Notes under the pieces: generated by a model
Seen by the model: the letters and a program-made list of their open reading frames with translations, nothing else
Told to the model about the DNA's origin: nothing
Database searches by the model: none
Shown here: positions 8,959-9,638 of the stretch, in pieces
How the letters are laid out: each line of letters begins with the position of its first letter
How positions within the stretch are numbered: the stretch's first letter is position 1
DNA from: a virus
Taxonomy: Duplodnaviria; Heunggongvirae; Uroviricota; Caudoviricetes
Length of the DNA: 23,488 nt
Reading direction: 5' to 3' (one strand)
IMG/VR virus record: IMGVR_UViG_2671180903_000008
Location: 1-23,488 of that record
Program-made: the position numbers and the translations under genes

Positions 8959-9638
8959 ATGGCAAAAGATCTGAAAACACTGGCGCTGGCCAGACTGTCG
9001 GGGTTCCGTCATAAAACGGTGAAGGTGCCGGAATGGAGAAATGTCAGCGTGGTGCTGCGGGAGCCTTCGGCAGAGGCCTGGTATCTGTGGCAGGAAGTGC
9101 TCAATGGTGATGGAGAGGATGACGATACCCTGTCGGTGGTGGCGAAAACCCGCCGTAACCTGGAAGCGGATGTGACGCTGTTCTGCGATGTCCTGTGTGA
9201 TACTGACCTGCAACGGGTGTTCACTCCGGACGACCGTGAGCAGGTGCTGGCCGTCTATGGTCCGGTACATGCCCGGTTGCTGCGTCAGGCACTGGAACTG
9301 ATCGCTGATGCAGAGTCGGCCAGAAAAAAGTAGCCCGCCCGGAAATTCGCTTTCTGATGCGACTTGCGCTCCGTCTGGGGCGCACCTTATCCGAACTGCG
9401 GCACAGCCTGAGTGCGAGCGAGGCGATGATGTGGATGGAGTTCGACAGGGTATCCCCGCTGGGTGATGAGCGCGGGGATATCCGTAATGCACAGATCGTG
9501 AAAGCGGTTTTCGGGGCACAGGGGATGAATGTTGCACTGAAGGACGCCATGCTCTGCTGGGGCGAGGATGAGGATAAGCCGGAGGTGGATCCGTTTGCGG
9601 CGCTGGAAGACGCGCTGAGCCTTGCAGCAATGTCATAA
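8959..9638 (+). CDS. Tail assembly chaperone, G-like product (8959-9333) and G-T-like fusion made by a -1 frameshift into the 9357-9638 frame
   Basis: First ORF ends ...GCC AGA AAA AAG TAG; the -1 frame from the A AAA AAG heptamer reads without a stop into the second ORF; 9357 ORF is in frame -1 relative to 8959 ORF; position directly upstream of tape measure. Confidence 0.7.
9324..9330 (+). other. Putative -1 programmed ribosomal frameshift slippery heptamer A AAA AAG
   Basis: Heptamer occupies the last two sense codons of the G-like ORF; -1 frame is open from here to position 9638. Confidence 0.65.

Follow-up and report, generated by a model that had tools for sequence, protein, structure and literature searches.

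Evidence for a programmed −1 ribosomal frameshift site in the HK97-like tail chaperone genes of a truncated lambdoid prophage

We analysed a stretch of 23,488 nucleotides (nt), positions 1 to 23,488 of the IMG/VR virus record IMGVR_UViG_2671180903_000008 (Caudoviricetes), which is referred to here as the window. We conclude that the gene at 8959–9638 very probably contains a site of programmed −1 ribosomal frameshifting, which belongs to an HK97-like (lambda G/GT-type) tail chaperone pair in a lambdoid prophage. A first-pass annotation of this DNA had described a G-like open reading frame (ORF) ending in AGA AAA AAG TAG, with a slippery heptamer at 9324–9330; each of these elements is present at those positions, and together with its surroundings the site comprises the following features.

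8959–9333, plus strand: zero-frame ORF from ATG 8959, 124 residues ending in ...ARKK, with the stop codon TAG at 9331–9333.
9309–9333, plus strand: overlap of 25 nt in which both frames are open; the upstream −1-frame stop is TGA at 9306–9308.
9324–9330, plus strand: slippery heptamer A_AAA_AAG, in the X_XXY_YYZ register.
9331–9333, plus strand: zero-frame TAG, which abuts the heptamer and lies in the A site after the next translocation if there is no slip.
9330–9638, plus strand: −1 extension (the T segment), 102 codons, VARPEIRFLM...AAMS, ending at TAA 9636–9638.
8959–9638, plus strand: whole frameshift gene encoding a 226-residue fusion, 8959–9330 joined to 9330–9638 with base 9330 read twice.
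9357–9359, plus strand: ATG called as the start of the T ORF, the Met of a conserved FLM motif.

Direct reading of the sequence gives GCC AGA AAA AAG TAG as the 3' end of the zero-frame ORF. A slip into the −1 frame is confined to 9309–9333, because only there are the zero and −1 frames both open, and the heptamer sits within this 25-nt overlap. After the slip the first codon is at 9330, and the reading continues GTA GCC CGC CCG GAA ATT CGC TTT CTG ATG. The −1 frame stays open over 9309–9638 and is in frame with ATG 9357; a stop between 9330 and 9357, for which the first-pass annotation had recommended a check, does not occur, and the frame runs through to TAA 9636–9638. Conceptual translation of the fusion accordingly yields 226 residues with no internal stops. 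The predicted junction peptide of this protein (roughly 25 kDa) is ...ESARKKVARPEIR, an example form of which would be SARKKVARPEIR.

The 12 structural genes of the window contain 11 in-register X_XXY_YYZ heptamers among 4018 codon positions, and A_AAA_AAG is represented once among these 11, at the chaperone site only. The −1 frame that follows the chaperone heptamer, at 102 codons, is the sole long one, the other heptamers being followed by 3–76 codons. The string AAAAAAG, counted regardless of register, occurs nine times in the window when about four are expected; it is commoner than expected and is therefore weak evidence alone, so that register and position carry the signal. The slippery-site arrangement as a whole exceeds chance and is unlikely to be a chance occurrence.

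The site has a published experimental counterpart. Antonov, Coakley, Atkins, Baranov and Borodovsky (2013; PMC3711429) grouped predicted frameshift genes into clusters, one of which, 'phage tail assembly chaperone', has 41 members and is described as similar to an HK97 protein. Two cassettes of this Phage_TAC cluster were assayed in a GST-MBP reporter in E. coli (PMC3711429). The cassette GCT_GAT_..._AGA_AAA_AAG_TAG_..._TGG (15618692) gave 7% ± 0.79 −1 frameshifting (PMC3711429, Table S2), and its printed 75-nt sequence in that table is identical, with 0 mismatches and as a single occurrence, to window positions 9304–9378. The slip site is thus already known, since this 75-nt stretch is identical to the tested cassette, and the exact sequence has already been tested experimentally. 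The second cassette, G_GGA_AAG CCG TAA, gave 6% (PMC3711429); it resembles the sites of phages Fraca and HK542.

We then compared the arrangement across homologues. A tblastn search with the fusion as query found 230 phage records, and in the near-full-length matches listed the query splits into two pieces in adjacent frames. Thirteen homologous loci were read, which together with the window represent 12 distinct lineages, from 99% down to ~36% identity, with hosts among E. coli, Salmonella, Klebsiella, Vibrio, Halomonas, Burkholderia and Bordetella. In 12/12 of these lineages the frame of the T part is −1 with respect to that of G, and 10 of the 12 have a heptamer in the overlap, the other two having A_AAG only. 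A_AAA_AAG is found in the window, phi467, Vibrio Pm34, phiE125, Bcep176 and Bordetella PHB09; G_GGA_AAG in Salmonella SP-016, Fraca and HK542; and A_AAA_AAA/A_AAA_AAC in the Halomonas phage. HK97/HK446 and a Klebsiella prophage carry A_AAG only. The in-register heptamer is absent from HK97 at locus 1333–1344 (CGG GAA AAG), and from Klebsiella phage ST147-VIM1phi7.2 at 976–990 (GCA AAG TAA). These two homologues lack a heptamer, yet the HK97 record treats its frameshift as genuine; single-tRNA or non-canonical slip sites are therefore tolerated within the family. A stop codon directly follows the heptamer (or A_AAG) in half of the distinct lineages (6/12).

A profile search of IMG/VR viral contigs with a 7-sequence alignment recovered 80 loci, 67–100% identical in G, of which 78 were scorable. 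AAAAAAG and TAG are kept in all 78, as is a −1 frame of more than 100 codons, and bases a few positions from the heptamer vary among the same loci. The claim of the first-pass annotation that a conserved −1 site joins two tail-chaperone ORFs is therefore borne out by 12/12 lineages and 78/78 scorable IMG/VR loci, and by matches of the two products to PF06222 and PF06223 that are described below. A single-protein pattern search of genome contigs matched 530 stretches, and 0 of these were confirmed by tblastn. One IMG/VR relative, IMGVR_UViG_3300029191_000019, has an identical slip site followed by a −1 frame of 319 codons (to 2828), as against 102, with the T stop lost. An indel or a fusion of T to the tape measure gene is possible there; the two genes share one frame in the window.

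A split between two ORFs might also arise by a frameshift mutation, or a sequencing error, in what was formerly a single 226-residue ORF. The PHROGs family phrog_14766 (224 positions) spans both parts, with the G part at 1–122 and the T part at 125–222, and so indicates that annotations as a single coding sequence (CDS) exist. The single-CDS entries that we saw are, however, joined annotations of ribosomal slippage (HK97, HK446 and Bcep176), and the −1 split recurs throughout the lineages and viral contigs counted above, so that mutation or error has next to no chance of being the explanation. In the HK97 record the long product is annotated as 'translated due to a -1 frameshift', and the Bcep176 record labels its parts 'lambda G equivalent' and 'lambda T equivalent'.

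The alignment of the predicted proteins bears on how the T segment is expressed. The 226-residue fusion aligns end to end with 11 homologous fusions, the junction falling at one shared alignment position. Between the slip site and Met 9357 the −1-frame residues show the conserved pattern V-A-x-P-G/E-x-R/K-F-L-M, followed by LALRxGRTL, and a (F/L)(L/F)M motif is conserved around this Met. Since the nine codons that precede ATG 9357 are conserved as protein, we conclude that the stretch is translated in the −1 frame and that the ATG encodes an internal Met.

This conclusion has to be set against expression of the downstream ORF as a separate protein from ATG 9357, through reinitiation or translational coupling after TAG 9331–9333. 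The ATG lies just 23 nt past the zero-frame stop, the RefSeq and GenBank records show a separate 93-residue CDS here, and coupling and frameshifting can coexist in some clusters (PMC3711429). Nevertheless, inspection of the sequence upstream of ATG 9357, agcccgcccggaaattcgctttctg, revealed no convincing Shine–Dalgarno sequence, whereas the tape measure start is preceded by GGAGAAAGG. Nor would independent initiation require the −1 offset and the shift-prone overlap site found in every homologue; the nine codons are, in addition, conserved as protein, and the Met is internal to a conserved motif. A GST-containing fusion was measured at 7% in the reporter, and Phage_TAC is not among the clusters named as showing internal initiation (PMC3711429). 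We therefore regard independent expression of T as highly improbable.

A second mechanism that would give a fusion from the same bases is slippage of RNA polymerase, rather than of the ribosome, on the A run, one A being added in a fraction of the mRNAs. The run is homopolymeric and is longer in some homologues (the phi467 class has A8 and the Halomonas phage A9), and the reporter assay (PMC3711429) does not separate the two mechanisms. The run in the window is only 6 A, however, and efficient realignment needs >7 A (PMC3711429). Moreover, HK97, Fraca, SP-016 and the Klebsiella phage keep the arrangement without a usable homopolymer (G_GGA_AAG or A_AAG), and the G_GGA_AAG cassette still gave its 6%. 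Among the ribosomal −1 sites of E. coli, in addition, A_AAA_AAG is the best known, dnaX being an example (PMC5009743). Transcriptional slippage thus appears extremely improbable, and ribosomal frameshifting is the reading that we retain.

The protein families of the two parts are those of tail assembly chaperones. The upstream product matches Pfam PF06222 (Phage_TAC_1) with an E-value of 2.3e-61 and 205.6 bits, against a gathering cut-off of 25, and the match is full-length (residues 1–124 on profile 1–124); HK97 gp13 scores 203 bits on the same model. It also matches PDB 2OB9, 'Tail assembly chaperone' (E 1.8e-46). For the −1 segment the match is to PF06223 (Phage_tail_T), with an E-value of 5.9e-19 and 68.7 bits, against a gathering cut-off of 25.9. 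On that model lambda T reaches 54.1 bits, and the T part of HK97 reaches 73.4 bits. In PHROGs the upstream part belongs to phrog_344, 'tail assembly chaperone', and the −1 segment to phrog_337, 'tail protein'; NCBIfam has no model for either part. By contrast, the lambda gpG family, PF06894 (Phage_TAC_2), gave no match to the upstream ORF at E ≤ 0.01, BLASTP found no similarity between this ORF and lambda G (E 6.5), and the T part was not alignable with lambda T by BLASTP. To judge from these matches, the upstream ORF is an HK97 gp13-type chaperone and not a sequence relative of lambda gpG, to which it is analogous in position and presumably in role. The lambda G/GT-type label of the first-pass annotation therefore holds for mechanism, gene order and T family, and fails for the G part. 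We also considered and rejected an antisense gene: the ORFs that run against the coding strand at 8863–9636 (257 residues) and 9221–9718 (165 residues) had no Pfam match at E ≤ 1. Both are treated as shadow ORFs of the coding strand, and the former, on the minus strand and covering the whole chaperone region, is most likely one.

By both Pfam families the chaperone pair belongs to the HK97 gp13/gp14 family (NC_002167: 7472..7858; joined CDS 7472..8145). The likeness extends to ~60% identity over the fusion, the position between major tail and tape measure genes, and the −1 offset. The HK97 slip site differs in that it is A_AAG only (...CGG GAA AAG) and lies six codons before the stop, whereas in the window A_AAA_AAG abuts TAG. 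In HK97, gp14 and the tape measure gene are also separated by the gp15 moron; the corresponding interval of the window holds only a terminator-like hairpin. This hairpin with its T run, AAAACCTGC-TGTG-GCAGGTTTTTTTT, occupies 9647–9673, between the T stop and the tape measure start (z −3.3). At the equivalent place HK97 has the moron and an annotated terminator, and the hairpin, inside a late operon, may be a moron remnant overridden by antitermination.

With lambda G/GT the window shares the gene order V-G-T-H, the −1 direction, a slip site close to the 3' terminus of G and the T family PF06223, together with a low-percentage fusion product for which no strong stimulator is needed. It differs in the G family (PF06894 in lambda, PF06222 in the window), in the failure of BLASTP to detect the relationship of either part, and in the slip site. 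That of lambda is G_GGA_AAG (Levin et al., 1993; Xu et al., 2004, 2013, 2014, all as cited in PMC5009743) and is several codons from the G stop, whereas the site in the window abuts the stop. E. coli dnaX has the identical heptamer and shares the tRNA-Lys chemistry that favours re-pairing from AAG to AAA. There, however, the shift truncates the protein, whereas the chaperone shift extends it, and it reaches ~50% by means of an upstream Shine–Dalgarno-like element and a downstream hairpin (PMC3711429), neither of which is detectable in the window. Among its close relatives are BP-4795 ORF65/ORF66 and the GeneTack 'Phage_TAC' cassette 15618692, in which the frameshift element is without difference from the window. 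When complete Stx phages and enterohaemorrhagic E. coli (EHEC) prophages are compared, it is the surroundings of the window copy that differ: only 77 nt of L remain there, and K, I, J and the fibres are lacking.

We believe that the site would operate as follows. Most ribosomes would translate 8959–9330 and terminate at TAG 9331–9333, to give the 124-residue chaperone. With Lys-tRNAs on AAA (9325–9327) and AAG (9328–9330), a minority would slip one base back to AAA AAA (9324–9329), read GTA at 9330 and continue to TAA 9636–9638, to give the 226-residue fusion, the C-terminal 102 residues of which would be the T domain. E. coli has a single tRNA-Lys, which forms a better pair with AAA than with AAG, and A_AAA_AAG is for this reason the −1 site most prone to shifting in this organism (PMC5009743). 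In lambda, tail assembly requires G and GT in a fixed ratio; the two bind the tape measure protein and the major tail protein, and virions contain neither (PMC5009743). By analogy with lambda, the tape measure protein would be coated by the short chaperone, in many copies, together with the G portion of the fusion; the T domain would recruit the major tail protein and nucleate the tube, and neither chaperone would be present in the virion. The efficiency of the slip would set the amount of fusion, ~7% in the reporter with these 75 bases, and the heptamer alone, possibly aided by the adjacent stop codon, appears sufficient.

Several points weigh against this reading, or limit how far it can be taken. 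The first concerns stimulators. The first-pass annotation had recommended a search for a downstream stimulatory structure, which was fruitless: folds of 9331–9420 and 9331–9380 are no better than those of shuffled sequence (z −1.09 and −0.42), and RNAalifold predicted no pairs in a consensus structure of 11 homologues. A Shine–Dalgarno-like stimulator was likewise not found in 9300–9323, and the chaperone site has neither element of the dnaX type, namely a Shine–Dalgarno-like sequence ~10 nt upstream and a stable hairpin 5–9 nt downstream. Because no stimulatory element was found, the efficiency in the native context is uncertain; the absence does fit an efficiency as low as 7%, far below the ~50% of dnaX. 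Secondly, the 7% was measured with a GST-MBP construct, neither on the native mRNA nor in the present strain, and the reporter inserts had an extra 18 nt upstream and 45 nt downstream, flanks that are unprinted, so that the identity covers 75 nt only. Thirdly, the fusion protein of this prophage is a prediction from sequence, and the G and T functions are ascribed by analogy with lambda, whose gpG has no detectable similarity to the G part. Finally, the chaperone products in this genome may lack an assembly role, because L is cut off after 77 nt and K, I, J and the fibres are missing.

A 7-bp hairpin at 9365–9382 was tried as a stimulator and rejected; it begins 34 nt past the heptamer, encodes the conserved LALRLGR and is broken in the Burkholderia and Halomonas homologues. 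Rfam gave a sub-threshold rsmX match only (19 bits against a gathering score of 56), which we treated as chance.

The genomic setting of the chaperone pair is that of a tail module, which is cut short on its downstream side. The pair is flanked directly by the major tail gene upstream and by the tape measure gene downstream, and the relevant neighbours are these.

8237–8953, plus strand: major tail subunit gene, 238 residues with a C-terminal Ig-like domain; phrog_158 (E 2e-117), Pfam Ig_2/Ig_3 and Phage_tail_2, RefSeq 'major tail subunit'.
9690–12932, plus strand: tape measure gene, 1080 residues; PF06120, PF20155, PF09718 and phrog_339.
12925–13266: gene for a lambda-M-like minor tail protein, named on the basis of Pfam and PHROG.
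13426–14118, minus strand: truncated espK effector gene, EspK profile positions 330–453, with a score far below the cut-off.

The tape measure protein is the expected binding partner of the chaperones, and its gene, 3243 nt, is equal in length in BP-4795 and NZ_CP042892. From terminase to M the structural ORFs are all open and of normal length. Comparison with a related prophage in NZ_CP042892 identifies 13266–13342 as the first 77 nt of the tail gene L, and collinearity with that genome returns only at 14290, in the potB flank. The truncation is seen at 13266–14480, and the truncated espK is followed, in order, by the chromosomal genes potB, potA, pepT and roxA. Compared with the same-site prophage of NZ_CP042892, ~10 kb are missing, comprising the rest of L, K, I, J, lom and the tail fibre. 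With these genes absent, the prophage is unable to build a complete tail by itself. That the tail assembly module is intact up to the tape measure gene, as the first-pass annotation put it, is thus literally true and nonetheless misleading, as the module breaks 77 nt into L, at 13342.

Despite this truncation, the chaperone region belongs to a common module. Positions 8200–9750 are 99.1–99.5% identical in nucleotides to many Stx-converting phages and EHEC prophages (BP-4795, Stx2a and Stx1a phages), and a survey of 5426 complete E. coli genomes found the module in 1246, the copy number reaching 8 in one genome. The host prophage is lambdoid and of enterohaemorrhagic-type E. coli.

These observations bear on whether the site is an inert relic, that is, a signal that works mechanically in a prophage lacking its tail tip, in which G/GT would be purposeless and unselected. 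The end of the module 77 nt into L, followed by the truncated espK and chromosomal potB, favours such a view, as does the finding that no genome of the E. coli collection matches at least 80% of the window in one place. On the other hand, the structural ORFs from terminase to M remain open at normal length, and the G/T region is 99.4–99.5% identical to complete Stx phages, so that any decay is recent. With as many as 8 copies of the module in a genome, action in trans or recombinational recovery is possible. We consider the relic explanation possible although unlikely, and it bears on the usefulness of the site and not on its sequence identity; our identification of the site as that of a programmed ribosomal frameshift does not depend on it.

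Other features of the window lie outside the chaperone region. The portal region, 4281–6703, consists of two ORFs (4281–5645 and 5642–6703), the second in the −1 frame with an ATGA overlap. The equivalent region of NZ_CP042892 has the PGAP label 'phage portal protein, frameshifted', and phrog_2271 (859 positions) matches both ORFs. Their 40-nt overlap contains no X_XXY_YYZ heptamer, and for this reason translational coupling of two genes seems more likely here than recoding. Inside the ORF downstream of the portal, 5807–6237 is a tandem repeat with a unit of 162 nt (54 codons), present in 2.7 copies of 97% identity; NZ_CP042892 shares this repeat unit, seen as a secondary BLAST match offset by 162 nt. 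The major capsid gene (2144–4069) is a single ORF of 641 residues that combines a prohead protease domain (Peptidase_S78) with an HK97-fold capsid domain (Phage_capsid). A second mobile element, at 19338–22365, stands beside roxA, where NZ_CP042892 has phoQ; its genes encode a tyrosine integrase (19338–20588) and a protein with an Icd-like cell-division-inhibitor domain (21199–22365).

The value of the finding is chiefly for annotation. The first-pass annotation anticipated that gene callers would list two ORFs, and this is the case: RefSeq/PGAP gives 'phage tail assembly chaperone' and 'phage tail assembly protein T', and the BP-4795 record gives ORF65 and ORF66. Because the records list two separate genes, the 226-residue fusion is missing from the protein sets of RefSeq/PGAP and of most GenBank records of this common module. 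The correct annotation is a joined CDS with ribosomal slippage at 9330. Biologically there is nothing new in the site itself, since mechanism, family and exact sequence have all been described and tested. What is specific to the window is the presence of an intact frameshift gene inside a prophage without tail-tip genes; as these genes have been lost, the intact signal is no evidence of a working tail module.

We end with a speculation. The stop codon that abuts the shift site may add a pause, and we have considered that the adjacent zero-frame stop is part of the shift signal and, separately, that the tail-tip-less prophage supplies G/GT in trans to co-resident lambdoid prophages; we hold this combined proposal to be decidedly unlikely. 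Were the stop codon part of the signal, RF1-dependent termination at TAG would be slow enough for the Lys-tRNAs to slip meanwhile, and the G:GT ratio, and hence tail assembly, would respond to the termination capacity of the host without any RNA structure.

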